Below are positions 8,338 to 45,040 of a stretch of 64,000 nucleotides of DNA, piece after piece. The position numbers and the translations under genes were made by a program. Source of the stretch: Escherichia phage vB_Eco_mar004NP2; the sequence record OR896837.1. One strand, 5' to 3'. The notes beneath the pieces were generated by a model. It was given only the letters and a program-made list of their open reading frames with translations, had not been told where the DNA came from and did not search any database. Each line of letters starts with the position of its first letter. Position 1 is the stretch's first letter.

Positions 8338-8350
8338 TAAGAAACCAATT

Positions 8351-8378: not shown

Positions 8379-8390
8379 TGGGATATGTAA

Positions 8391-9930: not shown

Positions 9931-9960
9931 ATTTATATAAATTGATAAGGAAGAAATTTG

Positions 9961-10740: not shown

Positions 10741-11500
10741 ACTGAACTGGAACGTAGAAGGTGTAACCGAGTCTCTGAAAGCAAAAGCCACTGCTCTGGG
10801 TGTTGCTGTAATCTCTCAAGAACAAGTAGCTGCTATCGCTGCTGAACTGGCTGCTGAAACTGGCAAAGACGTTACCGCTCGCTCTGTTGGCTCTAAGCTG
10901 CGTAAAGAAGGTTTTGAAGTACAAAAAGCTAACGAAGTACAGAAATCCCCGTGGACTCCTGAGCAGGAAGCTGAACTGGTTGATTTCCTGAACGCTCATG
11001 CTGGTCAGTATACCTATGCTGAAATCGCTGCTGCTGTAGCTGGTGGTCAATTTGGTGCTAAGCAGGTACAGGGTAAGATCCTGAGTCTGGAAATGACCGC
11101 CTCTGTTAAACCAACTGAAAAAGCTGCTGCTGTTCGTTCCTTCACTCCTGATGAAGAAACCGATTTTGTTAATCAGGTTGTTGCTGGGGCTACTATTGAA
11201 GCTATCGCTGCTCACTTCGGTCGTAATATCAAGCAGATCCGTGGTAAAGCTCTGAGCCTGCTTCGTGAAGGTCGTATCGCTGCTATGCCGGTACAGGAAA
11301 CTTCAAGTGCTAAAACTCGTGAAGATCTGTTAGAAGGTCTGGATCTGGCTAACATGACTGTTGCTGAGATCGCTGAGAAAACTGGTAAATCTGAGCGCGG
11401 TGTTAAATCTATGCTGTCTCGTCGTGGTCTAGTTGCTAAGGACTATGATGGTGCTGCTAAGCGTGCTAAACTGGATGCAAAAGCTGCGGCTGCTGAATAA
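10733..11500 (+). CDS. hypothetical abundant protein with four tandem ~40-aa HeH/SAP-like repeats
   Basis: Four repeats of the type [TQ]x[AE]EIAxxxGxxxxxVxxKxLSLxxxG; strongly host-optimal codon usage. Confidence 0.5.
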   Translation: MSKLNWNVEGVTESLKAKATALGVAVISQEQVAAIAAELAAETGKDVTARSVGSKLRKEGFEVQKANEVQKSPWTPEQEAELVDFLNAHAGQYTYAEIAAAVAGGQFGAKQVQGKILSLEMTASVKPTEKAAAVRSFTPDEETDFVNQVVAGATIEAIAAHFGRNIKQIRGKALSLLREGRIAAMPVQETSSAKTREDLLEGLDLANMTVAEIAEKTGKSERGVKSMLSRRGLVAKDYDGAAKRAKLDAKAAAAE

Positions 11501-16960: not shown

Positions 16961-17450
16961 TTTCAAATTGCCCGTATATGCTTTACGGGCGTTTGTATCA
17001 ATTGAGCAAGAAGGTGATTATTCCGTAATTACAACAAGATATAATAAATATGTGCTAGATAACAGGAAGTTGCCTGGCACGTTTTCTCAACGTAGACTTA
17101 TTCTATTTGAGAAACGGAAAGAATTACCATACAAGCTCTACCCTATTAGAGGTAGAATATCAATGTTGTCTCAATTAGTTGGGTCAAAGCGTAGCCAATT
17201 TATAGATTCTGATGGAAATCTTATTAACTGGAAGAAAACTACGTTCTATGATGTTGTCACCTCTAAAGTTTTGCATTCAGCTAGAATTTATAATGGAAAA
17301 TACCAATGCTATGTGGCTAAAGTTCCTTATCCATTTGTATTATCCTATGTTCCAGCTTATATAAGCTATATTCTGGTAAATAATAGCCCTGTTATTTATC
17401 AAGTCCATCAAGAGGAGCCTGAAATTCCTAGACTTAGAATAAAATTATGA
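16953..17450 (+). CDS. hypothetical protein (start uncertain)
   Basis: Frame open between polymerase and helicase genes; track start is GTG; first internal ATG is far downstream; ends in ATGA coupling with the next gene. Confidence 0.3.
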   Translation: MLNFKLPVYALRAFVSIEQEGDYSVITTRYNKYVLDNRKLPGTFSQRRLILFEKRKELPYKLYPIRGRISMLSQLVGSKRSQFIDSDGNLINWKKTTFYDVVTSKVLHSARIYNGKYQCYVAKVPYPFVLSYVPAYISYILVNNSPVIYQVHQEEPEIPRLRIKL

Positions 17451-18799
17451 AGGTTGTTATATCTAATAAAGCCTATTTCAAGCCCGATGATGAACTTTGG
17501 GATTATTGTAGTAAGCAAACCACTTATCACATTGAGACAATGACTAGTAAATACCCTATTATGTATAAGAATAGTGGTGTTGTTGCCAAAGAGATTAAGT
17601 GGATTCCTATTACGCGTCTGGACTTACTAGATGCTAAAGGAGTAAAATACGAATTAGTCGATAAACGCACATTAGCTCCGGTAGATATACCAAAACCTAA
17701 GTTCAAGCTGCGTGAAGAAGACCAGCTCCCAATATATGAAGAGTGTGATGATACCTGTATTATTAATGGTAAGCCTGGATTTGGCAAAACTATCCTAGCC
17801 CTTGCACTTGCGTATAAATTTGGCCAGAAAACTCTGGTAATTTGTACTAACACATCTATTCGTGAGATGTGGGCAGCAGAAGTTCGTAAATGGTTTGGAT
17901 TTGAGCCAGGTATTATAGGTTCTGGGAAATACAATATTGATCCACCAATTGTAGTCAGTAATATTCAAACAGTGAATAAACATGCGAATAATCTTTCTAA
18001 AGTATTCGGTACTGTTATAGTTGATGAAGTTCACCATTGTGTGGCTACAACTTTCATTAACTTCCTAGAAATATCATGTGCTCGCTATAAGATTGGGCTA
18101 TCTGGAACATTAAAACGTAAAGATGGTCTACAAGTTATGCTCAAAGATTTCTTTGGATATAAGATCTTTAGCCCACCGGTTAATAATACTGTTGCACCTA
18201 CAATCCACAGGTACTCCGTACCAGTTGAGTTGTCTGGAAACCAAAACGTACCGTGGGCATTACGTGCTAATGATGTGTATAATCATCCTGAATATCGAGA
18301 AACTATTATAAACCTAGCACATTTATATGTGAATATGGGACATAAAGTACTCATTGTAAGTGATAGAACAGAGTTAATCCAAACAGTACTAGAAGCTCTT
18401 GCACAACGTGGTGTTACAACATATGAAATTATAGGGTCAACTCACTTGGATGACCGATTAAAAATTCAGGAAGATATAGCAAAAGGTGGGCCTTGTGTAC
18501 TTGCAGCAGCTCAAAGTATCTTCTCTGAAGGTATTTCCCTTAATGAGCTGTCTTGTTTAATAATGGGAAGCCTCATTAATAATGAATCTCTCATTGAACA
18601 GCTTGCAGGACGTGTTCAACGTATTGTCGATGGTAAACTCGACCCTATTGTTGTAGATCTAATTATGAAAGGTGGCACTGGACTAAGGCAGGCTTCTGGA
18701 CGTATGGCAGTATATCATAACAATGGGTGGAAAACTATTACCATGACTCCTGAGAAAGCAGTTCAATTAGCTAAAATTGCATTTGGCAACAGCTCATAA
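17447..18799 (+). CDS. SF2 DNA helicase (D10-like)
   Basis: Walker A NGKPGFGKT, DExH box VIVDEVHH, SGTLKR motif. Confidence 0.8.
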   Translation: MKVVISNKAYFKPDDELWDYCSKQTTYHIETMTSKYPIMYKNSGVVAKEIKWIPITRLDLLDAKGVKYELVDKRTLAPVDIPKPKFKLREEDQLPIYEECDDTCIINGKPGFGKTILALALAYKFGQKTLVICTNTSIREMWAAEVRKWFGFEPGIIGSGKYNIDPPIVVSNIQTVNKHANNLSKVFGTVIVDEVHHCVATTFINFLEISCARYKIGLSGTLKRKDGLQVMLKDFFGYKIFSPPVNNTVAPTIHRYSVPVELSGNQNVPWALRANDVYNHPEYRETIINLAHLYVNMGHKVLIVSDRTELIQTVLEALAQRGVTTYEIIGSTHLDDRLKIQEDIAKGGPCVLAAAQSIFSEGISLNELSCLIMGSLINNESLIEQLAGRVQRIVDGKLDPIVVDLIMKGGTGLRQASGRMAVYHNNGWKTITMTPEKAVQLAKIAFGNSS

Positions 18800-18811
18800 A
18801 TGATGTATAAT
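18783..18811 (+). promoter_or_regulatory. sigma70-like promoter overlapping the helicase 3' end
   Basis: TTGGCA-17 nt-TATAAT followed by ATATACATAAATTTGAGAGAG. Confidence 0.45.
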
Positions 18812-18883
18812 AATATACATAAATTTGAGAGAGAAAGTTTCGGATTGATAAGAAAGTCCGAAGCAGAAAAATAAAAATTTTAG

Positions 18884-18913
18884 TTGCTAAATTCTCTCGA
18901 AATCTAGTATAAT
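18884..18913 (+). promoter_or_regulatory. sigma70-like early promoter
   Basis: TTGCTA-18 nt-TATAAT followed by ATATACATAAATTCGAGGAG. Confidence 0.5.
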
Positions 18914-19020
18914 ATATACATAAATTCGAGGAGAAAACAAAAATTAAATTCTTCGATTATGAAAAGCTATACTTACTAGCTAGAGGAAATTCCGACCTAA
19001 TTATTAAGTTATTCAAAAGA

Positions 19021-19305
19021 ATGCTCATAGAGCCTGATGCTCACCAATTATTGGTCGGTTCCTCATTCATTTTGAATGAGTCAACAATAGTTGATAATCC
19101 AAATAAATTGTCTAATAGACAACTGGCAGAATATCTAGGAATTTTAAGTCTACGAAATTATGCCGAATACAAGTTTACAAACGATCCTAGTTTGAACATA
19201 CAATATGTTCCAGTATGGATACCACGTTTAGTAATCGACACTAACCCACTAATCGCAATTAACAAATCGAAATTAATCTTTAAAGAGGAAATAAAATATG
19301 GCTAA
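19021..19305 (+). CDS. hypothetical protein (doubtful; may be untranslated leader)
   Basis: 94-aa ORF with no RBS; region carries perfect palindromes. Confidence 0.25.
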   Translation: MLIEPDAHQLLVGSSFILNESTIVDNPNKLSNRQLAEYLGILSLRNYAEYKFTNDPSLNIQYVPVWIPRLVIDTNPLIAINKSKLIFKEEIKYG

Positions 19306-31380: not shown

Positions 31381-34217
31381 TCCACAGACTGTTCTCCATC
31401 ATCCCCTTCAGCCCTAATACGAAAATACAATTTTCTATTTATACCTAGAGCACCGCTGTTCTGGAGAGCAAAGTCTGCCTTATTATATGTTAATAAATAG
31501 TCATAAGTATACTGATTTTCAATACGTACACTTCTTAACATCCTATTTTGCGAATCGTGTATTTCAAGTGTATAAAATATACTCTCTATTATATCTTCTT
31601 CAGGTATTTTATCCCAAGCTAGTTTTACATCTGGGCCAACAAACTCAGTTACATCTCCAGAAGCAGTATTAGTTACCATAAAATTAGATACTACACTAAG
31701 GTTTTTAGCAGAGTTAAGTTCTATAGACAGAGTCACCGGGGAACTTCTTCTACCATTAATATCTACTGCTCTTATCTCAAATATAGCCAGACCTGCTGGT
31801 TCCCCAATTATTTCTTGGATCATACGTTCGTTAGGATTGGTCTCTAACTGTTGTACTATGTAAGGTTCGGCATGGCCTGAGTGCACAATAGAGTAATAAA
31901 CTACATTATTGGTTAGACTCGGAAGCCAGGATAACTCACCATTTTTACCTATAGAACCAACTAAGCCATCAGGTGGCTTAGGAGTATACTTAAAATCTCT
32001 AGGAGGAAGAACGTTGTTACTAATATCTGGTATATCATTACCACTATTATCTATTTGATCAGAGTTGATGAATACATCTTTTCCATACTCCTGTAGAGTA
32101 ACATTTATCTTTCCTTCCCTAGAGTTTTCGACTTCATCTACTAAAAAGTACTTCTTATCCCATCCGTAACGGTCGTATGTAAATGCAATAGCATCATTAG
32201 GCTCAATACCAATGAATTGATATGGTAAAGAAAATGAGAGGGTTCTAGAATACCTAGATTTCTTAAGTTCTCTGTCTGCAAAACTTCTAGCAGTATAGTA
32301 GTTAGTTATATTTGCAAAAGATAATTGTAATTTTTTGTCTAGGTTCTTGTCCTGTTCCTTATACTTGGAGTTATAGAATGTAATGGAATTAGTTTTCCAG
32401 CTAAGGGCTGGATCTACGATAGATGCTTGAACTGAGTTGAATTTATTTCTACCAGTAGTATCTGATAGCTCCAAATCACCGTAAGTATCTAGAAAATTAA
32501 TCTCTAATGGAGTATTAGAGTATTTTTCTACAGTAATCCTGTACTGGCCAGATAAGTTGTTAATAGCCCCACCGTAGGACTCTAATAAACCTTGCACATT
32601 TTTAAATACTGATTCAGATGTATCCAGAATAGTATTCATTTGTACTATTTGTCTATTTTCTGCTAGTGGATCAGTCCACCCAACGTATCTCCAATATGGC
32701 TGCCAAGATACCTGATAGGATTCATCTATAATATCTAAAATAGCTGCTTCCTGTATTAATTGCTGAAGAGGGAACTGATCAATGGTAATATTAGCACCGT
32801 ATCTATCGGAGGTTAAGTAGTCAAGTGTTTGCCAAATACCATTTAAACTAGTACTATTAGCAGTTACTCTACCATCAGAATGATAGACTTTTACTTTTTT
32901 ACCTTGAATTTCAGCACTAACTTCAGGAATCTCAGTCCTATTTTCATTAATAGTGAAGCGCACCACTGCGTATGCAGTATCTAGTAGTTTATACCTAGCA
33001 TCCCAGTACTCCGGTCCATTGCCATTCATATTCTGAAGGTAGAACCCACGTTCTTTCGCTATGTCTACTAATACTTCAGAAGCCGTTTGATCAGCTTTTC
33101 CATGATAAGTCCAAATCCTTATATCACCATTACCATCATTATACTTATATTCCTGACCATGCACAGAAGGACTACTAGAAGATATTCCTGATGCTATTCT
33201 TTGCATGGTGTCTCCTGCTACTTTTTTAACACCGAAACAGGTTCTAGCAGAGCTATCATTAGAGTCCATACAAATCATAGGGTTATCCCCGAAGGAAAAG
33301 TCAAGAAAACCGTCTATCTCCCCTTCAGCAAAGGCGTATACTACATAAACTATATTAGGATTGTGTAGTTCCGTATCCGCAAAAATAGGTATTCCTGGTA
33401 TTTTCTGTACACCATAAACTACTGGTATATACTTAGCAGCAAGGTTAAAATCTATATCTACTTCTTTAGTAACAGTCTCATAATACTTTTTAAGACTATA
33501 GCTTCTAGATAGGCCAAATAGCTTTTTCTTAGACTTTAGCTTGTATCTCTCTTCCTGTACCTGATATTTTGCTAAAATAGAGATACTTTTATTAGCATGA
33601 AAGAACCCATAATCTTCTTGGTACTCAAGTCTTTTAGCCCCGTTAGATGGAACTAATTGCCCTGCTACAACCTCAAGCCCTCTATGAGAAGCATCATCAG
33701 TAAATCTACCGTTAACCCTATCAAAGTCATAGAATTGGTTAGAACAATTCCAAGTAATTGTGGAGGTTCCAACCCCAGAAGTACTAATGTTGTCCTTAAT
33801 ACCCCCACCGGTAATTCTCCCTCTAAAGTATAATAAAGGGCCATTTGTGTCTGGGTCTACAGGTAAAATAGAACCATCCTCTGTAATAATTGCTTGGTGG
33901 ATTGTTACTATTCTATCTAAAAAGGACACACCATTCTGCACTAATTTCAGTACTTCATCCTGCGCTGTACCCGTAATAGTAAAAGATAGACTGCCAATAG
34001 ATAAATCTCTATTTTGTTTATGTGTGCTAATGGACTTAACCTTACCGGCCTGGTACAAAATACCATTATATAGTACATCTCTAAAATAATCAGTTAAATA
34101 AATAAAAGCAGTACTAGTACCAGTAGAGCCAGGTAATTCTAGGGAAATTAGACTAGCAGTTTTTATTCTGCTATTATTTTTTAAGTAGTTTCTAGCACTA
34201 TCTAGTATTTTCTTCAT
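31365..34217 (-). CDS. baseplate hub protein (pb3-like)
   Basis: 950 aa; by T5 gene order and size (pb3 about 949 aa as I recall). Confidence 0.55.
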   Translation of the reverse strand: MKKILDSARNYLKNNSRIKTASLISLELPGSTGTSTAFIYLTDYFRDVLYNGILYQAGKVKSISTHKQNRDLSIGSLSFTITGTAQDEVLKLVQNGVSFLDRIVTIHQAIITEDGSILPVDPDTNGPLLYFRGRITGGGIKDNISTSGVGTSTITWNCSNQFYDFDRVNGRFTDDASHRGLEVVAGQLVPSNGAKRLEYQEDYGFFHANKSISILAKYQVQEERYKLKSKKKLFGLSRSYSLKKYYETVTKEVDIDFNLAAKYIPVVYGVQKIPGIPIFADTELHNPNIVYVVYAFAEGEIDGFLDFSFGDNPMICMDSNDSSARTCFGVKKVAGDTMQRIASGISSSSPSVHGQEYKYNDGNGDIRIWTYHGKADQTASEVLVDIAKERGFYLQNMNGNGPEYWDARYKLLDTAYAVVRFTINENRTEIPEVSAEIQGKKVKVYHSDGRVTANSTSLNGIWQTLDYLTSDRYGANITIDQFPLQQLIQEAAILDIIDESYQVSWQPYWRYVGWTDPLAENRQIVQMNTILDTSESVFKNVQGLLESYGGAINNLSGQYRITVEKYSNTPLEINFLDTYGDLELSDTTGRNKFNSVQASIVDPALSWKTNSITFYNSKYKEQDKNLDKKLQLSFANITNYYTARSFADRELKKSRYSRTLSFSLPYQFIGIEPNDAIAFTYDRYGWDKKYFLVDEVENSREGKINVTLQEYGKDVFINSDQIDNSGNDIPDISNNVLPPRDFKYTPKPPDGLVGSIGKNGELSWLPSLTNNVVYYSIVHSGHAEPYIVQQLETNPNERMIQEIIGEPAGLAIFEIRAVDINGRRSSPVTLSIELNSAKNLSVVSNFMVTNTASGDVTEFVGPDVKLAWDKIPEEDIIESIFYTLEIHDSQNRMLRSVRIENQYTYDYLLTYNKADFALQNSGALGINRKLYFRIRAEGDDGEQSVEWASI

Positions 34218-34828
34218 AAACTTTCCCGTAAATTTAATGAGATGCCGGAATATGTTCCGTTATTATTTAATGTAGATCCGAAAGCATCACCATTCATGAG
34301 TTTTGTTCTAAATAGTATTCCGTTAAACACTGGTTTCTCAGCCCCAGTAGTAGTTATAAATAAATCAGGGTATAAGTTTATAGACCACGTATTGCCTGAT
34401 TTATTGAATGATGTTATTTTATATACTTTTGGATGGTTAGATAGCTTAAATAGATCCCCTGGTTTTGGAATACCTGTGAGAAGTCCTTTTGTATCCATAG
34501 TTATATTAGAACTCTTCTGTCCAGCAGGTATATTTACTAGGCTAGTATTACCTCTAACTCTAAAAGCTTCGTATTGTGGTAATATAACATCTATATAACC
34601 ACCAGTACTTTTGTATTCTAGAATAAATGCATCTAGAACACTATATTCATCTGGAAATAATTCTGGATAAGAAATATTTATACCCCAGTATTGAGCAGAT
34701 ACCTTAACTTCGTTAACTTTACCATTTGGTAACTCATCACGAATTACTGGGTCATTATCAATCAGGTTAACACTTTCGAATCCTAAGCCTGAAAGTTCTG
34801 GATTCGTGTATGGGTCTGGTAATCTCAT
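34214..34828 (-). CDS. distal tail protein (pb9-like)
   Basis: 204 aa, immediately downstream of the tape measure gene. Confidence 0.55.
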   Translation of the reverse strand: MRLPDPYTNPELSGLGFESVNLIDNDPVIRDELPNGKVNEVKVSAQYWGINISYPELFPDEYSVLDAFILEYKSTGGYIDVILPQYEAFRVRGNTSLVNIPAGQKSSNITMDTKGLLTGIPKPGDLFKLSNHPKVYKITSFNKSGNTWSINLYPDLFITTTGAEKPVFNGILFRTKLMNGDAFGSTLNNNGTYSGISLNLRESL

Positions 34829-34899
34829 AGTTAATTTCTCCTCTTTAATAACAATATTATAATAGTATTAGAAAATTTTATCAAGAAATTTTTATTTTT

Positions 34900-34931
34900 C
34901 CATAAAGAAAAGGAGGACTTTGAGTCCTCCT
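34900..34931 (-). terminator. rho-independent terminator after the tape measure gene
   Basis: Minus strand GGAGGACT-CAAA-GTCCTCC followed by TTTTCTTTATGGAAAAATAAAAA. Confidence 0.55.
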
Positions 34932-34937
34932 CCAGTT

Positions 34938-37900
34938 TTAAGAATTTCCTAATGTTTTCAGACTAGTACCGTTCTCATTCAGAGCTAATTCCACTGCGTC
35001 TCTTAGAGCACTACTATTACTAGAAGCAAACTCTCTAAAACTTGCAGCATCCATAGCACTAATATTCAGGATGATAGGTCTTCCTGAAGTTGAGTTAGAT
35101 GAGGTTTTTAGCTCATCATTAGGCGTAGCTTTCATAGGAACCATAGGGGTAACTACTTCTGTACCATGCTCACCCATTTGATAGCTAACCCCAGGGTACA
35201 TATTACCACCTTCGGCACGCGGCACAAATGAATTAGCATTACCAATACCTTGATCACCACGTACATAAGATAGTTCTCCAGCATTAGCAGACATAGATAC
35301 ATCAATGTTCTTCTGACGCTCTCCAAGAGTTAAATAACTAGTGGTATCAGCTCCAGAATCTGCAATACTTGACATACTAGAGGCAGAGGATGCCTGCGCT
35401 AATGCCAGAGCACCTGCTAATCCTGCCGCTACCATCAGAGGGATAGAGAACGGGTATGGTACAGCTGTTGCTGCCTGCATAACTGCTACTGCAGTTTGGA
35501 TGATAATCCGCTTCTTAGCTGCATCTTGTTGAATCTTCAGCTTTTCAGCTTCTAGCTTCTTCAATTTAGCTTTAGATGCTTCTGATTTACCATCACGTTT
35601 CTGCTCCGCTGCGATAGCTGCATCAATAGCACTAACCTGTTGACTAGTACTATACTGAATCATAGAAGATACAGTTTGCATGCCAGAAGCAATCAAGGAG
35701 GTAGTATCTAGGGATCCCTGAGAGAACTGAATCATAGCGTTAGTTAAGTTACCCATACTTTGAGCCACAGCGGTTGCTTCAGAATTTAATTCAGATAGCT
35801 TAGAGATTGCTTGGTCATAAGAAGCCATTCTATTTTGCATATCAGCAAAATCTTTATCTTCTCCAGATAATCCCGTTGTAGGAGTGTACACAGCACCTAC
35901 AGAGGATCCTACCTGTTGTTGCATTTGAGCATTACGTTGCGCCGTTAAAGCAGACATTTGAGCCCTTGTCTTAGCTATTTCAGCATTCCAGCGCATTTGC
36001 TCGTTAGCATTACCTTTGGTAAGTTCCTTCATCTGAGTATAAAAATCTAACTGCATTTCCATTTTTTGCATTTCCCCTGCCAGAGGGAACATGGAAGTTA
36101 GAGTATTTTCAAAGGCTTCTTGCCTTTTACTGGTCATTTCAGCTTGCTGATCCTGACGGAATTTCCATATTTCACGTTCAATTTGAGCTTGAGAACGTCT
36201 AGACTGTTCAGCCTCTTTCTGTTTATCAGCCTGTTTTGTATACCATTCGTACTTCTCTTTTTCAATGGTCAATTCAAGATTTAACTGTGCTAGACGATAC
36301 TGAGTATCTGTCATAGTACGGTTATTTAAGAGAGCTATCTCACGATCTACGCCAAGAATTTTATCTGTGTAATCCTTGACCTTCTTCTGAGCTTCCATAC
36401 CCTGATTAGTAAGTTTAAGTTTCTCCAGCTGAATTTTTTCAATTTCTTTCTCAACAGCTTTATTTCCCTGGTTTGTTTGAAGAACACGGCGTAAAGCAGC
36501 TTCTTGCTCTTCTAACTGTTGGAGTTCTAAACGTCTACCAGCTTCCTGAGCCTTTTCCTTATCCTTAGTTTGATTATACACATCAGCTATTTTCTGTTGA
36601 ACTGCTAACTGATTTTTAGTTTCATTACCAGTTAGTTTAACATACTCAGATAGAGCCTGAGATGCAGTTTTCATTTCAGACAGGGTGTTATAACCCAGGT
36701 TAAGGTTTTTAACATATTCATCGGCACTCTTACCGGTACCTAAGGATAGAGATTCTATATTTTTTATAGCATCTGCCAAAGTAGCACTAGTTTTAGCAGC
36801 AGTATCTGTATTCTGAGCAACGTTCTGTATATCATTAGCTAAGTCACTAGCCGTTTTCTTAGTCTGATTGTACGCTTTCTGCTGCTCAGTTAGTCCTTTT
36901 AATACAGTAGAGTTAAAATCGTATACAGCATCAGGATCAGTAGTATCTCTCTGTAGATTAATTTGCTTCTGAAACTCTGGACTAGCCTTTGCAGCAGCGG
37001 CACCAGCAGCTTGATACGCTGATTTCCAAGCATTGAGATTCTCTGTAGAATCCTCTACTTCCTTACCAAGTCTAGTTACTTGTAGACCCATAGCTGCAGT
37101 TTCTGCTACAAATTGCTTATTGGCCTCCGAAGCACCTGCTGCTACAAGACCAACAGGAATACCTTCACCAACTTGACGTATAGCTAATTTTGTATAGAAA
37201 TCTGCTTGTTCCATTCGTTTATCAAACTCAGATTTTAGCTTATTACGCTTATCAAGAGATTCCTTATACATATCTAGAGCTTTATTATAGCCTTCTTCAG
37301 AAGCAGCTAAACTTAAAGCAACAGCACCAACGTTGGTAGGGTCTATCTGTCTATTAGTTTTTTCTTGGGCCCTAGCTGCTTCAGCAGATATAGAAGCCTG
37401 AGATGTATAAAATACTGTGTTGATAGCATCAATTACTGGCCCTAAATACTTAGCAGCAGCTTGTTGTATTTTTCTTAGTGCAGCATCTGCATTAGCAGCA
37501 AATTGCTCCCACGGAGTTGCACGTAGTACTTCATCTAGGTAGCCAAAACGCTTAGTAGATTCAGCAATTACCGCGTTAGCGTATGCTTGTTGCTTCTGGA
37601 AAGTGGTAAGACTATTAACATTATATGTTATACCTGTGTTTGCAGCATTTAACTGTTTAGCATAATCAGCGTATGCATCATTAAGACGGATGGTGACACC
37701 CAGCTCATCCAGAAGTTCGATTTCTTGTTTAGATACGCCCTTAATTACACGGTTAAGTGCATCAGTCATATCAATGCCAAGAACAGCAGCCGCACGACGA
37801 GCTACTAAACCAAATTTATTAAGTTGTTCGGCATCAAATCCATAAGCAGATGCTGAAGATGCCTGTCTCATTGCTTCCTCAAAAGAAATAGCATATCCAG

Positions 37901-38621
37901 CAGCTTCTTGTAGTGATCTAGCAAGGGTCTGAACAGGAGTACCTGTCTGAGTACCTACTATAACACCAAATTTTTCTAGACGATTTAGCTGATCACCTAG
38001 TTTAAGTTGTTCAAATGCTGATTGCAAAACGAAGATGTTGGAAGCAAGAGCTGCGTACATAATAGGTAGACTACCACCGATCTTAGCCATTGCCGCAAAA
38101 TCACGAGTTGCACCACGTGCTGAACCAGAAGTATTACCAATAGCTCTAGAAGCTCTACCAGCGGCACCAGCAGTATCATTAAAACCCCTAGCTGTGCCAC
38201 CTAATGCTCTATTAGTATCATATAATCTATCCTGGACTTTTTCTGTTGCAGCTGCAACATCATTACCTATTGTTTTAACAGATCTAGAAACTCCATCGAA
38301 TCCAATTTCTAGTTTATCTGTCACTTCAATAAGCTGGATAGCTAGGTAATCTAGTTTATCACCAATATCATTAATAGATTTGGTGATACCAGCCATACCC
38401 CTACTAGCTTGCATTTTAGTAAGACTTTTTGCTGCTCTGTCTGCTGCCCTCTCAATGGAATAAAGAGTTCTGGGCATTTTACCTAACTGCTCATTTGTCA
38501 GTTCGGAAGCAGCAGCAGCATTTTCCAACGCATCAGATACGTTTTCAATAGACTTTGCAGTACGAGTTGCTCCCTTCTGTTTAACGTCTATTAGTAATTC
38601 TCGTATTAGCTTATCAGTCAT
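34938..38621 (-). CDS. tail tape measure protein (pb2-like)
   Basis: 1227 aa, long Ala/Gln-rich coiled coil, hydrophobic segment near the C-terminus (VAAGLAGALALA). Confidence 0.85.
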   Translation of the reverse strand: MTDKLIRELLIDVKQKGATRTAKSIENVSDALENAAAASELTNEQLGKMPRTLYSIERAADRAAKSLTKMQASRGMAGITKSINDIGDKLDYLAIQLIEVTDKLEIGFDGVSRSVKTIGNDVAAATEKVQDRLYDTNRALGGTARGFNDTAGAAGRASRAIGNTSGSARGATRDFAAMAKIGGSLPIMYAALASNIFVLQSAFEQLKLGDQLNRLEKFGVIVGTQTGTPVQTLARSLQEAAGYAISFEEAMRQASSASAYGFDAEQLNKFGLVARRAAAVLGIDMTDALNRVIKGVSKQEIELLDELGVTIRLNDAYADYAKQLNAANTGITYNVNSLTTFQKQQAYANAVIAESTKRFGYLDEVLRATPWEQFAANADAALRKIQQAAAKYLGPVIDAINTVFYTSQASISAEAARAQEKTNRQIDPTNVGAVALSLAASEEGYNKALDMYKESLDKRNKLKSEFDKRMEQADFYTKLAIRQVGEGIPVGLVAAGASEANKQFVAETAAMGLQVTRLGKEVEDSTENLNAWKSAYQAAGAAAAKASPEFQKQINLQRDTTDPDAVYDFNSTVLKGLTEQQKAYNQTKKTASDLANDIQNVAQNTDTAAKTSATLADAIKNIESLSLGTGKSADEYVKNLNLGYNTLSEMKTASQALSEYVKLTGNETKNQLAVQQKIADVYNQTKDKEKAQEAGRRLELQQLEEQEAALRRVLQTNQGNKAVEKEIEKIQLEKLKLTNQGMEAQKKVKDYTDKILGVDREIALLNNRTMTDTQYRLAQLNLELTIEKEKYEWYTKQADKQKEAEQSRRSQAQIEREIWKFRQDQQAEMTSKRQEAFENTLTSMFPLAGEMQKMEMQLDFYTQMKELTKGNANEQMRWNAEIAKTRAQMSALTAQRNAQMQQQVGSSVGAVYTPTTGLSGEDKDFADMQNRMASYDQAISKLSELNSEATAVAQSMGNLTNAMIQFSQGSLDTTSLIASGMQTVSSMIQYSTSQQVSAIDAAIAAEQKRDGKSEASKAKLKKLEAEKLKIQQDAAKKRIIIQTAVAVMQAATAVPYPFSIPLMVAAGLAGALALAQASSASSMSSIADSGADTTSYLTLGERQKNIDVSMSANAGELSYVRGDQGIGNANSFVPRAEGGNMYPGVSYQMGEHGTEVVTPMVPMKATPNDELKTSSNSTSGRPIILNISAMDAASFREFASSNSSALRDAVELALNENGTSLKTLGNS

Positions 38622-38633
38622 GTTTTATTTTTC

Positions 38634-38669
38634 CCAATAAAAAAGGCTCTGGGCAAATCACCCAGAGCC
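38634..38669 (-). terminator. rho-independent terminator fused to a conserved motif upstream of the tape measure gene
   Basis: Minus strand GGCTCTGGG-TGATTTG-CCCAGAGCC then TTTTTTATTGGGAAAAATAAAAC-ATG. Confidence 0.6.
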
Positions 38670-38704
38670 AAGCCTCATCGTGGAACGCCCATTGGAGGAA
38701 ACTT

Positions 38705-39073
38705 TTACCGTGCACGAGATCTAGCATGTGGCTTAACGTTAGGAATCCTTCCGTTTTGCGGTTTATGCTTCTCAGCACGTTTACGTGCAGCATCTACAGC
38801 TTTAGCATCAAATATATTGATAATGTGTAGAACAAATTCTTTCTCTATAGGATCAGTAATCCCATAAATATCAAATAAAACACCTAGAGCAGCCTTATCT
38901 TTACCTATAAAGATAGGAAAGTCACCTGGTATGAAGCAGTCAATTAGACTGTTATAAATATTCATACTAGTAGCCACAATAGGTGGAAAGTCTTCAAGTT
39001 CAACAGGCATGGCCTTAGGATCAGGCTCTATACCCATTGATTCACAAAGTATTAAATATTGTTGTTTAGTCAT
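38705..39073 (-). CDS. tail assembly chaperone (putative)
   Basis: 122 aa, between the tail tube and tape measure genes (position of G/GT-type chaperones). Confidence 0.4.
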   Translation of the reverse strand: MTKQQYLILCESMGIEPDPKAMPVELEDFPPIVATSMNIYNSLIDCFIPGDFPIFIGKDKAALGVLFDIYGITDPIEKEFVLHIINIFDAKAVDAARKRAEKHKPQNGRIPNVKPHARSRAR

Positions 39074-39134
39074 TTTAGATGCTGAGCTTTTAATACACTT
39101 ATCTGCAAAATCAGCAACAGCATCTAGGAGTTCT

Positions 39135-39554
39135 TTACGCTTTTGGGCTACGAAAAGTGTCTAAGTGGAACACTGTCTGGTTGATCCAAGAATCAAACGC
39201 AGCAGAGTTCTGCATGAGCATTACAGCATTATCGCGGCTAAAAGGAACTTCAGTAGCAGGATCAGCATCTGTTTCAATCAGCATCAGTTTTTCAACGTCA
39301 CCTACAGTCAAACCGGTCCAACCTTTAATAGCTGCGTCAACGAAGGCTTCAATGAACTTATCATCATCCTGTACCTGAATCAAAGTACCATTAACCCATT
39401 CATCGCGTTTAGCAGAAGAAATAACACGTTTAGAGGTAGCACGAGACATATAGTTAAGTTCTAATTTAAAGTTCGGCATACCTGGGTAGGAAAGAGTAAT
39501 AGTACGAGTATCAAGAGTAATATCTTTTAAATTAATCATTTTTAATTTCTCCAA
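39135..39554 (-). CDS. tail assembly chaperone (putative)
   Basis: 139 aa, position as above. Confidence 0.4.
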   Translation of the reverse strand: MEKLKMINLKDITLDTRTITLSYPGMPNFKLELNYMSRATSKRVISSAKRDEWVNGTLIQVQDDDKFIEAFVDAAIKGWTGLTVGDVEKLMLIETDADPATEVPFSRDNAVMLMQNSAAFDSWINQTVFHLDTFRSPKA

Positions 39555-40434
39555 AGAAATCTATTCTCACTGGGTCTGAAGAAGCAGTAGGTATAATATC
39601 CCACTCAACTCTATACACATCTGAGAAATCTAGGCGTTTTGTAATACGTGCTGAAGGAAAATCTATAGAAATATTATTATTTCTTATATTTAAAGGTACA
39701 TCTGTCTCCGGTTCGATATTGTAAACCATATCTCCTGCAAAACGTTTTAAGTAATATAGAGAAATGGTTGCCGAAGCATTCATTTCAGTTACATAGGCTC
39801 TTTTATTATTATAAATTTTATTTATATCAAAAACACTCTTATCCTCTCTCCAAGAGCACTGCTGCTGGAAAGATAAAGAGGCAGAAATAAGACCGGGTAA
39901 GATGCTGCCATTAGTAGAAGCTATTACTGGGCTGTAAGACATTACTTCACCCTGTATAATAGAAGCTGCTTCTCTATAGGTAGATACTTCTGAGAATTTC
40001 CCAGACTCAATACCAACATTAAGAATTGGTATGTTCTTATCTAAAGAAAAATCTACCGTAGATACATAACAGTTTTCAAAATATACACAGTTATTATCTT
40101 TATTTACTATATAGATATTGAACATAATAGGTTCAATATTACTACTATATAGTGGGAGTAAGAAAGTATTACCTTTTCTATCAAAACCTAACCATTCAAA
40201 GAAGTTAGCTTCAGTAAGAGTATTACTGAAATTTACTGCTAGAGAGATAGAAGAGGGGGTTTGAGCATTTATAATAGAGTCTGCATAGTTAGTTCTATGA
40301 TGAACAGTCCTACGAAGAGTCTTGAATTCCTCGTAGGAAGTCTGTATATCATAGTTTGATAGGGCATCAAAATGAAATGCCCTACCATCATACTCAACTA
40401 TAACTTTTGACTCTCTCATTAGAGAGTAGTACAT
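39532..40434 (-). CDS. tail protein (p140-like)
   Basis: 300 aa, directly downstream of the tail tube gene as in T5. Confidence 0.4.
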   Translation of the reverse strand: MYYSLMRESKVIVEYDGRAFHFDALSNYDIQTSYEEFKTLRRTVHHRTNYADSIINAQTPSSISLAVNFSNTLTEANFFEWLGFDRKGNTFLLPLYSSNIEPIMFNIYIVNKDNNCVYFENCYVSTVDFSLDKNIPILNVGIESGKFSEVSTYREAASIIQGEVMSYSPVIASTNGSILPGLISASLSFQQQCSWREDKSVFDINKIYNNKRAYVTEMNASATISLYYLKRFAGDMVYNIEPETDVPLNIRNNNISIDFPSARITKRLDFSDVYRVEWDIIPTASSDPVRIDFFGEIKND

Positions 40435-40438
40435 TTAA

Positions 40439-41809
40439 TTAGCCACCAGAACCGTCTTTAGCTACAGCTTTCACAGTAACTTCTCCAGTCTTAGTAGTAT
40501 CCGCAGTTAATAGACCAGATTCTGGATCAATTGTAGCTGCATCACCGCTAGAAATAGACCAAGTTACAGCACTATTAGTAGCATCTGACGGAGTTACTTC
40601 AACAGACATCTGTAGAGTATTGCTATTCTCCACTGAAGTGACATTACCAGCTGATTTAACTGTGATTGATTCAACTAGTTTTGGTGGAGTTTTAGCGCCA
40701 TCTCCTGTAGCAATCAGATTAGCCACAGTGGTTTTAGTATACTTGTTAGAAAAACCAAGATAACCTTCATCACCAGTATCCAGATCTGTAGGGATAGCTT
40801 TAAACTCTACTGAAGTACCAAGTACATCAACAGTCTCAATATTAGGAATATTAACATGCGCCTGTTTAGCAACTAACACAGCTGCCGGACGTTCATCATC
40901 ATATTCACCACCAAGGATAAGTGCAACTTCAAACTTGTTAACTACCTTAAGAGTTTTAATTAGATCTTTATATAGCTCCATAGATCCTAGAGCTTTATCA
41001 TTAAGGTAAGCTGTCAGAGAACCAGTTAGTTCAAACGCACCAGTAAATGAACCGATCGGAATATTTACACGGGACATAATATTGGGGGTTAGGTACGTAA
41101 TATTGTTATTAATGGTGAAAGTACCTCCAGTAATAGGGATATCATATGCCTTATCAGAATCCATATCCTTAATTTTCAGGATAGTCAATTTGTTCTTGAT
41201 ATAAGAACTCTGAATAGTCATATAAGTTTCATCATCAACACCTACAGTATCAGGATCAAATGGTTGCTCATCCAAAGGAATAAGCTGGTTACCATTACCT
41301 GACCAAGTTACACGACCAATATCCTCAATATCAACGTTAACTTCTGCCTGGTTGATCTGGCAAGAGTCGATGTAACTCCATGCTTTGTCAGTCAGGATGT
41401 AGATATGCAGCATTGCCAGTTCGTGGTACGCGTTATCTTTAAAGTTAACCATAAAATTGGTTTCGTTATTATGTGCTCCTGTATCACCTTTTAGGTTAAG
41501 AGCTTTACCGCTAGAAATAGCATGCCATAACATATAGTCAGGGACAATCTGTTTGTTAGTAGTTTTATCTATATATGGCAGGATATAAGTAGAGAAACTC
41601 CACTCAGCCGCGTTTAAAGAGTCATTAAAACGTTTAGAACCACGAGTTGGACGCGGACCAGCTTCATTAACAGTAATATCTGTTAAGTTACTGTCCTGAC
41701 CCCAAGAAATATCATCCTGAACTAGAATCTCTTGCGTGTTGGTCTTATTATGACCAGTCTTAACCGTAGACACGAAGATTCGAGTATTACGTAATAGTTG
41801 TAAAGACAT
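40439..41809 (-). CDS. major tail tube protein (pb6-like) with C-terminal Ig-like domain
   Basis: 456 aa; C-terminal ITVKSAGNVTSV...VTWSISSGDAATIDPESGLLTA... resembles Big_2 Ig-like domains. Confidence 0.7.
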   Translation of the reverse strand: MSLQLLRNTRIFVSTVKTGHNKTNTQEILVQDDISWGQDSNLTDITVNEAGPRPTRGSKRFNDSLNAAEWSFSTYILPYIDKTTNKQIVPDYMLWHAISSGKALNLKGDTGAHNNETNFMVNFKDNAYHELAMLHIYILTDKAWSYIDSCQINQAEVNVDIEDIGRVTWSGNGNQLIPLDEQPFDPDTVGVDDETYMTIQSSYIKNKLTILKIKDMDSDKAYDIPITGGTFTINNNITYLTPNIMSRVNIPIGSFTGAFELTGSLTAYLNDKALGSMELYKDLIKTLKVVNKFEVALILGGEYDDERPAAVLVAKQAHVNIPNIETVDVLGTSVEFKAIPTDLDTGDEGYLGFSNKYTKTTVANLIATGDGAKTPPKLVESITVKSAGNVTSVENSNTLQMSVEVTPSDATNSAVTWSISSGDAATIDPESGLLTADTTKTGEVTVKAVAKDGSGG

Positions 41810-41835
41810 TTAATTATTTTCTCCTAATCTGTAAC

Positions 41836-42321
41836 TTATCTGCGAAGTGACCTACGTGGAGGCTGATACCTCACTGTTACATTTATTTCTGCTAAACCAT
41901 ATGGGGCCAGTAGACCCTCATCTGTACTAACTGATGTAATGATCATATCAGTTGCCTCACATGGGAAGGTCGATCCATTAGGTTTACTAACAGTATATTC
42001 TAAATTTCCACCTGTGTCAATAACGGTTTTTATATCCACTACGAGTTTTTCAAGTTGCTCTTGAATGTCTGTTTTCTCTTTATCATACACCAGGATTGGA
42101 AGTTCTAAAAACATCCACTGTTGGCCTGAAGGAAGATACTGCCCAGTTTCAGTTCCGATATGAACTGCCACATAAGGAAACTCTCGTATTTCCTCAAATT
42201 TATAAGTTTGACGAGAAACGTTTCCATATAGGTTATTAAAATATTCGTCAGGTTGAGAACCGTCCAACTGTTTAGATATACGGTCAACCAGAGCTTGTGC
42301 AATACTTGTTCTATGGTCCAT
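41836..42321 (-). CDS. tail terminator protein (p142-like)
   Basis: 161 aa, immediately upstream of the tail tube gene. Confidence 0.5.
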   Translation of the reverse strand: MDHRTSIAQALVDRISKQLDGSQPDEYFNNLYGNVSRQTYKFEEIREFPYVAVHIGTETGQYLPSGQQWMFLELPILVYDKEKTDIQEQLEKLVVDIKTVIDTGGNLEYTVSKPNGSTFPCEATDMIITSVSTDEGLLAPYGLAEINVTVRYQPPRRSLRR

Positions 42322-42324
42322 TTA

Positions 42325-43092
42325 TTAGGTTCCTTGATTAACCTTGATTTTATATCTAGAGTGAATCAGGTCTCTTGCAGCTTTTGCTATAGCCTCACCA
42401 ATAAGTTTTTGTGGATTTCTAGCGCCAGGATAAGGTCTTAGAGATAATCTTCTATACGTAGATACTGCAGGGTTGAATACAGAATATGGACGAGTCATAT
42501 AATTATATGTTACGTTCAATTCAGGAGAGCCTTTACTAGTCTCTGCATCTCTAAGTATAACATCCTTAATTTTCAGAGAATTTGCAAAGCGACCGGTTCT
42601 AAATTTTAATGGCGCTCCTGTCTTTTTCATATCCTTTATTAAGTACTCTTTAGCAACTATCTCTAATATAACCTTCATATTGCTATTTGATACAAAACGT
42701 CCGGAAGCACCTGTTATTGCACCTGAGTATCCATCCTCTACGTCTCTAGGATCCCCAAAGTTTACCTGTACTCTGCCTGTAGAACGTTTTTTACCTACAG
42801 CAGATTTTTTACCAGCGGTTGCTTGTATTAAATTCTCTAAAGCACCTAAATCTCCCGAAAGATCTAAACTAGAGGATACAGCTTTTAGTATAGAGGCTGT
42901 TCTAACATCAAGAAGATCTTGGGATACAGGCTTTGAAAACTTAAAAGATACTTGAGCAACAGTACCATCTCTGGTAGGATCTTTTAGCCCTGTTTCAACA
43001 GAGTATACAACAGTATTCTTATTATTTTCAGATCGTCCTGCAGTATCTAGCTGCTCTTTAATAATTTGTTTAGCTAGATCGGAAAGAGACAT
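42325..43092 (-). CDS. neck/tail completion protein (p143-like)
   Basis: 255 aa; position between head and tail modules. Confidence 0.4.
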   Translation of the reverse strand: MSLSDLAKQIIKEQLDTAGRSENNKNTVVYSVETGLKDPTRDGTVAQVSFKFSKPVSQDLLDVRTASILKAVSSSLDLSGDLGALENLIQATAGKKSAVGKKRSTGRVQVNFGDPRDVEDGYSGAITGASGRFVSNSNMKVILEIVAKEYLIKDMKKTGAPLKFRTGRFANSLKIKDVILRDAETSKGSPELNVTYNYMTRPYSVFNPAVSTYRRLSLRPYPGARNPQKLIGEAIAKAARDLIHSRYKIKVNQGT

Positions 43093-43604
43093 TATACTCT
43101 CCTATATACTTCAATAATAGTACGAATATGCTCTGGAATACCAGACTTAGTGCTATTGAAGGTTACTGTTTCACCACCAATTGTTTTAGCTTGGCGATAA
43201 TCTTGTTTGTGCCAATGATCTACTAACATACATGCTGCAAGTTTGAGATCTTCAGGTATTGGATTGAATCCACCTTGTGTATATGCTACATCCATATAAC
43301 CTTCTGGAGGATTAAATTTGAGAAGGATAATACCGTCAGAGTATAGCCTATACTGCTCTGGGTCAATCTCATTATCGTTAATCGTCACTTTAGTTACGGA
43401 GGTAGCAGATGGTGAGCTCAGAAAATATTTCCTACGTGTAGGTTTTGTATTGATTAACTGGTCTACCGCATCAGCGTCATCCATGCCTAGAAGGCTTGTG
43501 ATCAGCGCATTGGCAGCAGTAATCATCATTTCTACACCAGATTCTAATTCAGGTCGTTTTAAACCACCATATAATCTATAATCTTCGTCTGTGATGATTT
43601 GCAT
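43092..43604 (-). CDS. head completion/connector protein (p144-like)
   Basis: 170 aa; ATGA coupling to the downstream gene. Confidence 0.4.
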   Translation of the reverse strand: MQIITDEDYRLYGGLKRPELESGVEMMITAANALITSLLGMDDADAVDQLINTKPTRRKYFLSSPSATSVTKVTINDNEIDPEQYRLYSDGIILLKFNPPEGYMDVAYTQGGFNPIPEDLKLAACMLVDHWHKQDYRQAKTIGGETVTFNSTKSGIPEHIRTIIEVYRRV

Positions 43605-43613
43605 TTATTTTTC

Positions 43614-43642
43614 CCAATAAAAAAGGAGAGCCGAAGCTCTCC
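43614..43642 (-). terminator. rho-independent terminator after the major capsid gene
   Basis: Minus strand GGAGAGC-TTCG-GCTCTCC then TTTTTTATTGGGAAAAATAA-ATG. Confidence 0.65.
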
Positions 43643-43663
43643 TTATCGGCTGAAAAGCCTGTA

Positions 43664-45040
43664 TTAAGATGCAGCGTAAGCACCAGATACAACGCCGTTT
43701 TTGAAGTAACGTTGCAGGTTAACACGCTGAGTAACGTAGTACGCATCACGCTGTTTACCAGCTTGGCGCTCACGTTCAACAGTAACAGCACGCTGACGCG
43801 GCATTACGAAGTTATCTTTATAAACAATAACTGCGAACTCTTTACCTACTGCTTTATCTGGGAAGTATTCAGAAACTACAACCGGAAGACCATAGATACG
43901 ACCAACCTGACCTTGCAGTTTAACAGCATCGTTACCAACCTGTGCAACATCCTGCCATTCTTCGTCTTCCAGCAGATCGTAGTAAGCATCCATAGATACT
44001 ATCAGTACCAGTTTGCTCAGTTTCAGACCATGACGACCCAGTTTACGACGCAGTTTAGAGATAGTTTTAGCAGTTACCAGAACAGTACCATCAGCTTTAG
44101 CTTCAGTAGTAACTTTAGCTTTATCATCTTCAGCCAGTTTCAACAGACCTTTCGGCTTACCAGTACCATCACCAGTCATAAAAGCTTCTTCGATAGAAAC
44201 AGCATGTGCTTCAATCAGACGCTTACGCAGCAGCGGCAGCAGGGAGAAGATTGCATCTTCTTCAGTTTCATCAGTAATGAAGGACTTAGCAGCCAGTTTG
44301 TAGGTTTTAAAACTAATTTCAGTCAGAGTACCTTGAACTTCGTTACCAACAGTATCATCAGTACCGTAGGAACCAGCATCTACCCAAGTAGCTTTTCCAG
44401 CTTCAGGCTCAACCAGCATAGTAAGAATTTTGCTGGACATTGGCAGTTCATCGAACAGTGCACCAACTACTAACTCTTTCTGCAGGTCACGAAGGATACG
44501 GGTAGAGAAAATAGTTTCGTAGTTTTCACTGAAAACCTGTACAGAGGAAGAAGTATTAACAGCGTTAATGTGGGCTTTACCATGTTCAGTTTCAAATACG
44601 TCCTTCTCCATCATATAAGACAGGAGAACTAGTTTTTCAACTTCATCTTCAAAAGCTTCCTGAGTACCATACAGTGCTTTAGCTACGCTATCACCGACGA
44701 AGGAACGACCTTCACGAGCTGCTAGCAGAGATTTAATTTCATCCTGAAGACCAACAATGGTTTCCTGCTGCTTTTCTACAGTCTGTGCGAACAGTTCTGC
44801 GCTCTTCTTAGATTTTTCATCCAGAGACTTAACCAGTTCCAGAGCTTGTTCCAGTTTCTGACGATCTTCGCCAACTGCTTTAGAAACCAGGTCATTCATA
44901 CGAGCCAGTTCTTTTTCTTCCTGCTCTTTACGCATACGTTCAGCTTCCTGGGCTTTCTGAGCAGCGGTCAGACCTTCCAGAGATTTAGCCAGATCACCCA
45001 GACCAAGTTCTTCTTTCAGCTTATTAATATCAATAGTCAT
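43664..45040 (-). CDS. major capsid protein with N-terminal scaffolding-like domain (pb8-like)
   Basis: 458 aa; N-terminal coiled-coil region, HK97-fold-like C-terminus; optimal codon usage; 458 aa matches T5 pb8 as I recall it. Confidence 0.8.
   Translation of the reverse strand: MTIDINKLKEELGLGDLAKSLEGLTAAQKAQEAERMRKEQEEKELARMNDLVSKAVGEDRQKLEQALELVKSLDEKSKKSAELFAQTVEKQQETIVGLQDEIKSLLAAREGRSFVGDSVAKALYGTQEAFEDEVEKLVLLSYMMEKDVFETEHGKAHINAVNTSSSVQVFSENYETIFSTRILRDLQKELVVGALFDELPMSSKILTMLVEPEAGKATWVDAGSYGTDDTVGNEVQGTLTEISFKTYKLAAKSFITDETEEDAIFSLLPLLRKRLIEAHAVSIEEAFMTGDGTGKPKGLLKLAEDDKAKVTTEAKADGTVLVTAKTISKLRRKLGRHGLKLSKLVLIVSMDAYYDLLEDEEWQDVAQVGNDAVKLQGQVGRIYGLPVVVSEYFPDKAVGKEFAVIVYKDNFVMPRQRAVTVERERQAGKQRDAYYVTQRVNLQRYFKNGVVSGAYAAS

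Follow-up and report, generated by a model that had tools for sequence, protein, structure and literature searches.

The repeated string behind two late terminators of Escherichia phage vB_Eco_mar004NP2 is most likely a terminator U-tract abutting a weak ribosome-binding site

In the sequence record of phage T5 (AY543070), a "putative rho-independent transcription terminator" is annotated after D20-21 (the capsid gene), after T5.142 (a tail assembly chaperone gene), and after D18-19 (the gene encoding the tape measure protein pb2); a "promoter P-G 25" lies right behind the third terminator, and a "promoter P-J 5" is found within T5.146. All T5 gene classes are transcribed by the host sigma-70 RNA polymerase, and strong sigma-70 promoters precede the late genes (PMC7472727). 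In two other relatives, Serratia phage Slocum (MN095770) and Yersinia phage phiR201 (HE956708), the corresponding junctions have been annotated base by base, with terminators ending in TTTTTATT or TTTTTTATT and a ribosome-binding site (RBS) right after them. These are annotation calls rather than experiments, and the repeat that the junctions contain goes unremarked; the T5 record, likewise, does not point out the bases shared after its terminators. In this work, we analyzed this repeat in Escherichia phage vB_Eco_mar004NP2 (OR896837.1), using a stretch of 64,000 nucleotides (hereinafter, the window). The window shares with T5 the three terminators at the homologous positions, the bases following the one behind the capsid gene, and the counterparts of P-G25 and P-J5.

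The repeat is the 21-base string TTTTTTATTGGGAAAAATAAA, which occurs exactly twice in the window, both times on the minus strand (43604-43624 and 38624-38644). Both exact copies start right at the foot of a G+C-rich hairpin and, adding the two preceding C's, the common string reaches 23 nt, CCTTTTTTATTGGGAAAAATAAA (43604-43626 and 38624-38646). Probing the whole window with up to three mismatches did not retrieve any third copy; at this tolerance the chance expectation is 0.02, and none of 100 shuffled sequences reached two or more matches. The first copy (site 1) lies behind the hairpin of the major capsid gene, and its final A is the A of the next start codon (ATG, 43604-43602); the second copy (site 2) lies before the tape measure gene, where the bases AC separate it from the ATG (38621-38619). 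The initial annotation had reported the identical string at both places, as we found, and had described it as running directly into the next ATG. It had also mentioned a degenerate copy past the tape measure terminator. This copy does exist: the 11-mer GGAAAAATAAA at 34891-34901 is a partial third copy located 3' of the hairpin behind the tape measure gene, after which the sequence reads TTTTCTTTATGGAAAAATAAAAA. The 11-mer has three exact occurrences in the 64 kb, only at these three sites.

According to our analysis, the 21-base motif is most likely made up of two ordinary elements placed back to back, that is, the U-tract of a terminator abutting the weak RBS of the next gene. The first nine bases, TTTTTTATT, represent the U-tract, and the next 12-14 correspond to GGGA followed by the A-rich spacer AAAATAA(AAC). 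These are elements of known kinds, already annotated in T5 and its relatives. The features forming the two junctions, together with the third terminator, are the following:

43625-43642, minus strand: T1 hairpin after the major capsid gene, GGAGAGC-TTCG-GCTCTCC (-15.0 kcal/mol, z -3.65), annotated in T5.
43616-43624, minus strand: U-tract of T1, TTTTTTATT, the first half of the motif; the terminator features of T5 and Slocum end in this run.
43605-43615, minus strand: translation initiation region of the head completion gene, GGGA (43612-43615) plus the A-rich spacer AAAATAA (-4.2 kcal/mol); Slocum has GGA annotated as RBS.
38645-38669, minus strand: T2 hairpin, GGCTCTGGGTGATTTGCCCAGAGCC, 3' of the tail assembly chaperone gene and 5' of the tape measure gene (-20.3 kcal/mol, z -3.93).
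38636-38644, minus strand: U-tract of T2, TTTTTTATT, assigned from the sequence.
38622-38635, minus strand: translation initiation region of the tape measure gene, in which GGGA (38632-38635) is followed by the spacer AAAATAAAAC; an RBS is annotated here in relatives.
34909-34933, minus strand: T3 hairpin (-15.8 kcal/mol, z -3.77) downstream of the tape measure gene, with TTTTCTTTAT as its U-rich tail; it is annotated in T5.

The three hairpins are the top three terminator-like matches in the 30-50 kb interval. They are all intergenic, lie on the minus strand, co-directional with the operon, and are placed 21 nt (T1, capsid), 35 nt (T2, chaperone), and 4 nt (T3, tape measure) from the preceding stop codon. 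Their stems consist of 7-11 pairs and their loops of 3-5 nt, the T1 loop being a C(UUCG)G tetraloop, and the U-rich tracts (TTTTTTATT for T1 and T2, TTTTCTTTAT for T3) begin at the stem base; the T1 stem can be extended by A-U pairs to 43623-43644. The records of T5, HdH2, and Slocum all label T2 a terminator. Moreover, pairs are preserved across genera despite changes on both sides in 7 out of 11 positions of T1 and in 6 out of 10 of T2; in Klebsiella phages, for example, the stem GGCTCTGGG/CCCAGAGCC has become GGCCTAGGG/CCCTAGGCC. The canonical form, the compensatory stem changes, and the annotation in T5 support the identification of the T1-T3 hairpins as putative intrinsic (Rho-independent) terminators, as the initial annotation had proposed. 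A bidirectional function was discarded, the plus-strand bases after the hairpins being ATCGGC or similar, with no T-run. No transcript maps or termination/read-through measurements for the T5 family were found in the literature searched. As a separate observation, the T-run of site 1 comprises 13 T's, rather than six, in the IMG/VR genome 2974619798 (T5-like, saus47N type; CTCCTTTTTTTTTTTTTATTGGG, at about 9950-10000 of locus L012), which may represent length variation of the terminator-tail homopolymer or possibly a sequencing artefact.

As for the second half of the motif, the claim that no AGGAG-type RBS precedes the two start codons is literally correct, but GGGA can pair with the 3' end of 16S rRNA, with a duplex energy of about -4.2 kcal/mol. 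The distance from GGGA to the ATG is 7 nt at site 1 and 10 nt at site 2. A similarly weak class of sites is found elsewhere in the operon (pb3, GGGAAAGTTTATG, -4.3 kcal/mol; portal, -3.3 kcal/mol), and most of the abundant products of the operon have Shine-Dalgarno energies of -6.6 to -9.3 kcal/mol, the range of the capsid, decoration protein, protease, tube, and pb9 genes. The pairing with 16S rRNA, the spacing, the canonical counterparts in relatives, and the RBS labels given by other annotators all suggest that GGGA is a weak Shine-Dalgarno site. Among genera, this half varies about as much as the RBS of the tube gene, and its conservation is no better than that of the other RBSs of the operon. 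The possibility that a small upstream open reading frame (ORF) ends at the TAA ahead of the site-1 ATG was rejected, as the stretch from the capsid stop to that ATG lacks an in-frame start codon.

A/U-rich translational enhancers lying beside weak Shine-Dalgarno sequences are a feature of ribosomal protein S1-dependent initiation in E. coli. The two junctions resemble them in that a short Shine-Dalgarno is flanked on its 5' side by a U-rich run and on its 3' side by an A-rich spacer, a context favouring 30S binding; they differ in that nothing here points to an enhancer action of the U-tract, the conservation of which is already accounted for by termination. We can suggest, by analogy, that the U-tract may aid 30S binding as an S1-type A/U-rich enhancer.

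The comparison with relatives indicates that the two halves of the motif are separable, as T5 itself splits them. Unlike the window, T5 harbors an extra gene, T5.141, between T2 and pb2; its 250-aa product has a CapR homology domain together with a treble-clef zinc finger, and the insertion point lies precisely between the T2 U-tract and pb2's ribosome site. The T5 junction reads ...GCCTTTTTTATT/TATAAACAT..., and pb2's own site (GGAAAA) reads ...ACAGGAAAACATTAGATG. This insertion explains why T5 is without the intact motif at the tape measure site. T5 is the sole carrier of T5.141 (15021-15771 in locus L023 and 4739-5491 in L037) among the loci examined, and the gene, whose stop codon abuts the ATG of pb2 (TAGATG), has the look of an inserted mobile gene.

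The layout hairpin, U-tract, Shine-Dalgarno, 5-10 nt, and ATG is kept at both junctions in 10 other lineages, namely Klebsiella Kpn13-P1, Pantoea AAS21, Serratia Slocum, Proteus PM135, two Providencia-type contigs, and Vibrio VPG01, GRLPWR, PG07, and D17. In these, the slot of GGGA is occupied by GGGT, GGAA, GGAG, GGGG, AAGGAG, AGGAGG, AGGTGA, or AGGA; in the more distant Demerecviridae, among them Vibrio and Proteus phages, a canonical Shine-Dalgarno such as GGAG, AAGGAG, AGGAGG, or AGGTGA is found there, PM135 having AGGTGA at the tape measure site. In Slocum, the terminator ending in ...TTTTTATT is immediately followed by a ribosome_binding_site feature, GGA at site 1 and GGGT at site 2, and in phiR201 GGAA is the annotated RBS of the tape measure site.

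In Vibrio Demerecviridae, an extra gene of about 250 aa also follows the post-chaperone terminator and precedes the tape measure gene; it is found at the following positions:

16719-17477 of locus L033: extra gene.
18465-19226 of locus L034: extra gene.
18187-18960 of locus L035: extra gene.
10145-10882 of locus L036: extra gene.

VPG01_148, the sole Vibrio copy scanned, gave no Pfam match. A homology between T5.141 and this Vibrio gene was considered and discarded, no similarity having been found, which makes T5.141 a T5-specific insertion.

The third site has a different nature, and it involves one of the two promoters of this region:

34856-34904, minus strand: sigma-70 promoter homologous to T5 P-G25, with -35 TTGATA (34879-34884), a 17-nt spacer, and -10 TATAAT (34856-34861), matching 11 of 12 consensus bases.
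41992-42020, minus strand: internal sigma-70 promoter homologous to T5 P-J5, TTGACA-17-TATACT, within the 161-aa T5.146 homologue, 5' of the tail tube gene.

The window differs by one base from the 75-nt P-G25 feature of AY543070. Since that feature starts with TATGGAAAAATAAAAATTTCTTGATA, the degenerate third copy lies inside the annotated promoter: the GGAAAAATAAAAA copy falls within the T5 feature, the A-rich upstream block TATGGAAAAATAAAAATTTC of the homologue holds the 11-mer (34891-34901), and AAAAATTTC sits immediately 5' of the -35 TTGATA. The consensus of T5-like promoters includes an A-rich block, AAAAATT, near -43 (PMC3326045), and the GGAAAAATAAAAATT stretch at the third site is the A-rich upstream (-43/UP-like) block of the promoter, not an RBS. 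The P-J5 feature of T5 also has a close match in the window, and this homologue is well placed to raise tail tube gene transcription beyond T1.

We also checked the occurrence of the same design, and of the string itself, elsewhere. The terminator/GGGA design extends beyond the late genes: on the plus strand, in the early region, the ORF at 8044-8337 precedes a hairpin, AGCCCCTATATGGGGCT (8351-8367), after which come TTTTTGTGTATTT, GGGA, 9 nt, and an ATG at 8391 opening a 102-aa ORF. We count this junction (window 8337-8393), which differs in sequence, as a fourth GGGA site abutting a terminator. In the T5-like genomes of IMG/VR, the 17-mer TTATTGGGAAAAATAAA is found only at the two sites, and most of its other IMG/VR matches look coding (readable, in our reading, as ...IIGKNK). 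The IMG/VR matches of the pattern CCTCCANNGGGCGTTCC outside Demerecviridae genomes were rejected, as they lie in unrelated sequence, in many cases looking protein-coding by eye. An unrelated 42.6-kb viral contig (IMG/VR 3300032255_000005; locus L147, 9480-9580, minus strand) carries the hairpin AAAAGCCGC-TTTTAA-GCGGCTTTT followed by the exact 23-mer TTTTTTATTGGGAAAAATAAATG, the ATG of which opens a 639-aa ORF with no significant Pfam match. Judged only on its size and position, this ORF can tentatively be considered tape-measure-like, and the junction may be the outcome of either convergence or transfer. Finally, the exact 23-mer was retrieved from six bacterial contigs of metagenome-assembled genomes (L211, L212, L214, and L215, from Clostridia; L210; and L213, from Nostoc), five being labelled as Clostridia (three near-identical) and one as Nostoc. 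It comes after an AT-rich hairpin in four Clostridia contigs (including the three near-identical ones), and its ATG opens a reading frame in all six, although in one case of only 7 codons.

Two further conserved elements accompany the junctions of the window:

38673-38698, minus strand: 26-nt non-coding element CCTCCAATGGGCGTTCCACGATGAGG, between the chaperone stop and T2, unique in the window.
43648-43659, minus strand: small hairpin GGCTTTTCAGCC, between the capsid stop and T1, with the stem GGC(T)/(A)GCC conserved across genera and a loop varying in sequence and length.

The latter implies that both junctions have a small hairpin 5' of the terminator. The element CCTCCAATGGGCGTTCCACGATGAGG is near-invariant in the T5-like phages of Escherichia, Salmonella, Klebsiella, Serratia, Proteus, Providencia, and Pantoea, and in Vibrio phages it is still recognisable as GTCCTCACGGGCATTCCACGAG. 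A coding explanation for it was discarded, as its frame relative to the stop differs between lineages. An Rfam search over 34000-45000 gave four matches only, with E-values of 3.8-9.4 and all far under the gathering scores, and the T5 nick consensus, Pu-pGCGC, is absent from the elements.

The interpretation of the motif as a U-tract plus a weak RBS has points against it. The identity of two independently constrained sites over 23 nt is not expected, and both sites stay near TTTTTTATTGGG(A/T)AAAATAAATG even in genera with a capsid protein identity of only 66-70%. The intergenic regions 1 and 2 show an identity of 0.71-0.87 versus 0.53-0.79 for most of the flanking coding DNA, the third codon positions of which are, by a rough estimate, 0.45-0.72 identical. 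The match of the 11-mer at the exact position of the third site is unlikely by chance, and the composite model accounts for it only by common descent or A-rich convergence. Moreover, we infer the efficiency of termination, the read-through, and the translation from GGGA. To judge from the alignments, it is possible that a sequence-specific constraint acts on the motif beyond the U-tract and any weak Shine-Dalgarno. Within genomes, sites 1 and 2 drift independently (GGGA versus GGGT or GGAA), with no concerted change, which speaks for purifying selection acting on an ancestral sequence and against concerted evolution.

The over-conservation might reflect a trans-acting factor, either a phage late protein or a host RNA-binding protein, that uses the 21-23-mer as a signal coupling read-through to translation; a host reader could be a protein recognising GGA in the loop of an AU stem. 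The identity of 23 nt at two sites with a related 11-mer at a third, the retention of the string at both sites in Tequintavirus, Epseptimavirus, Novosibvirus PM135, Slocum, and Providencia phages, and the restriction of the 17-mer to two sites within the T5-like genomes of IMG/VR are in line with this idea, and TTTATT-GGGAAA-AATAAA can fold into a weak hairpin exposing GGGA in its loop. We nonetheless consider it unlikely: the hairpin (TTTATT/AATAAA) has an energy of -1.9 kcal/mol and a z of -0.39, with shuffled sequences equally good, U- and A-runs being always able to pair in some register; T5 does without the intact motif at the tape measure site; relatives swap the GGGA-A-rich half for unrelated canonical RBSs while keeping the architecture; the two sites drift separately; no Rfam family matches; and the 23-mer is a gene-start context in Clostridia and Nostoc too. 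As far as these sequences can tell, nothing points to a specific reader of the string. Hence, the dedicated 21-bp signal of the initial annotation is not sustained, since it splits into a U-tract and a weak Shine-Dalgarno that are separable in T5, has canonical Shine-Dalgarno sequences as its counterparts in relatives, is ordinarily conserved in its RBS half, and also occurs at gene starts in unrelated bacteria.

A second alternative concerns the tape measure RBS, which would be masked by a long-range helix between UUUCCUCCAAU...GUUCCACGA, 5' of the terminator, and AUUGGGAAA, 3' of it, acting as a clamp or an antiterminator-type switch. This would give a role to the element CCTCCAATGGGCGTTCCACGATGAGG, near-invariant in enterobacterial Demerecviridae and recognisable in those of Vibrio; RNAalifold and single-sequence folds do pair UCC/UUUCC with the Shine-Dalgarno GG(G/A) in several lineages, and D17 has 7-8 complementary bases. 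On the other hand, any CCUCC-like run pairs with any Shine-Dalgarno by definition. When the upstream element was shuffled in eight lineages, the fraction pairing as well as the native one was 0.06-0.84, the native being no better in half of them; the total pairing probability of the Shine-Dalgarno was the same as with shuffles, the predicted pairs lack changes on both sides, and nothing comparable is found at the capsid site, so that such a helix appears very improbable. A broader version, in which both junctions and the 26-nt element (38673-38698) form a family-wide regulatory RNA module of Demerecviridae, is also doubtful, on a par with the trans-acting factor. If true, a phage or host factor might bind the module, or the module might be set free as a small RNA derived from a 3' end and carrying a CCUCC seed, and it would actively set the read-through and the translation of the head completion and tape measure proteins, both of low copy number, instead of being a passive terminator plus RBS.

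All three copies might instead be associated with promoters, as UP-like A-tracts or promoter remnants, with transcription re-initiating after each terminator. In favour of this, a strong sigma-70 promoter has the third copy in its upstream block, and an A-rich -43 block is typical of T5-like promoters (PMC3326045). At sites 1 and 2, however, the ATG is within 0-2 nt of the motif, which leaves no space for -35 and -10 elements and a leader; a promoter scan gave no match of at least 9/12 between the motif and the gene start; and a leaderless start was rejected, the bases from -12 to -7 relative to the ATG being TGGGAA, with no -10 element. We regard this explanation as extremely unlikely, and the re-initiation that had been suggested applies to the third site (the sigma-70 promoter corresponding to P-G25 of T5) and not, as transcription re-initiation, to the other two. 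The same very low probability can be assigned to the idea that the identity of the two copies is a functionless leftover, evolving neutrally, of a small duplication or gene conversion: both copies are short and match exactly, and the duplication of an ancestral terminator-RBS cassette would yield them, but they have persisted at both sites while the flanking coding DNA fell to 53-79% identity, and a relic would decay.

The window derives from a T5-like phage (Demerecviridae); 545 related phage records match the region, the closest being Escherichia phage fp01 (95.7%). The late genes follow one another on the minus strand. Terminase, portal, decoration protein, protease, and major capsid protein are followed by T1; then come the head completion protein, two completion and terminator proteins, the tail tube protein, the T5.144 homologue, and the chaperones up to T2; after T2 lie the tape measure protein, T3, pb9, pb3, and pb4. 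The genes flanking the three terminators are:

43664-45040, minus strand: major capsid protein gene (458 aa), Pfam PF05065.
43092-43604, minus strand: head completion protein gene (170 aa), T5.148 homologue, Pfam PF24163 (E 9e-79).
34938-38621, minus strand: tape measure protein gene (1227 aa), pb2 homologue, Pfam PF24164 and PF24165 (T5 tape measure N-terminal and C-terminal domains).
34214-34828, minus strand: distal tail protein pb9 gene, identified by Pfam, with the strong Shine-Dalgarno GAGGAG (-9.1 kcal/mol).

The Pfam matches bear out the assignments of the capsid, tape measure, head completion, and pb9 genes.

In phage T7, the terminator T-phi is located after the capsid gene 10. Inefficient terminators have been described as balancing phage gene expression in T7, LUZ7, and phiX174 (bioRxiv 10.1101/2022.03.18.484859; 10.1101/2020.03.05.979765). 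The arrangement of the window resembles that of T7, phiX174 (TJ/TF/TG/TH), and Pseudomonas phage LUZ7, in which terminators inside the late unit step down the mRNA by partial read-through. It differs from them in two respects: here the host sigma-70 polymerase serves all gene classes (PMC7472727), and only about 20 nt separate the terminator from the start codon, with the U-tract and the RBS abutting. This short distance, together with the fact that no promoter fits into it, implies that the mRNAs of the head completion and tape measure proteins must be read-through transcripts.

On the reading of the motif as a terminator U-tract followed by a weak RBS, we can depict the following scenario. 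The host sigma-70 polymerase transcribing the late operon would mostly stop once past the capsid gene, at T1, and once past the tube and chaperone genes, at T2. The read-through RNAs would carry the terminator hairpin in their leader and would be translated from the weak GGGA, possibly aided by the U- and A-rich flanks. T1 and T2 might act as attenuators and, in combination with the weak Shine-Dalgarno, would keep the output of the head completion and tape measure proteins far under the levels of the capsid and tube proteins; P-J5 would then restore transcription for the abundant tube protein, and P-G25 would restart it for the tail tip genes. We infer the leakiness of the terminators and the effect on protein ratios. 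The virion contains 12 copies of the head completion protein, 3 of the tape measure protein, and 6 of Dit, with a capsid of 13 subunits per asymmetric unit and a tail tube of stacked trimeric rings (PMC10713586). T1 and T2 are located where the required copy number falls, i.e., from capsid to head completion and from tube/chaperones to tape measure. It is plausible that leaky terminators lower the expression of these low-copy proteins; the idea of a signal setting the stoichiometry between capsid and tail genes survives in this form, with the terminators at the copy-number drops and no dedicated motif.

A striking exact repeat of the late operon would thus be explained by two abutting textbook elements, with little at stake; a new question would arise only if the residual over-conservation reflected a specific binding factor. 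For annotation purposes, the two strings can be labelled as terminator plus RBS, and the third as terminator plus promoter P-G25. The junctions may be useful for engineering T5-like phages, or may be borrowed as parts for stepping expression. As for the biology of the family, terminator-abutting weak ribosome sites would represent a family-wide design of T5-like phages, placed where the required copy number falls.

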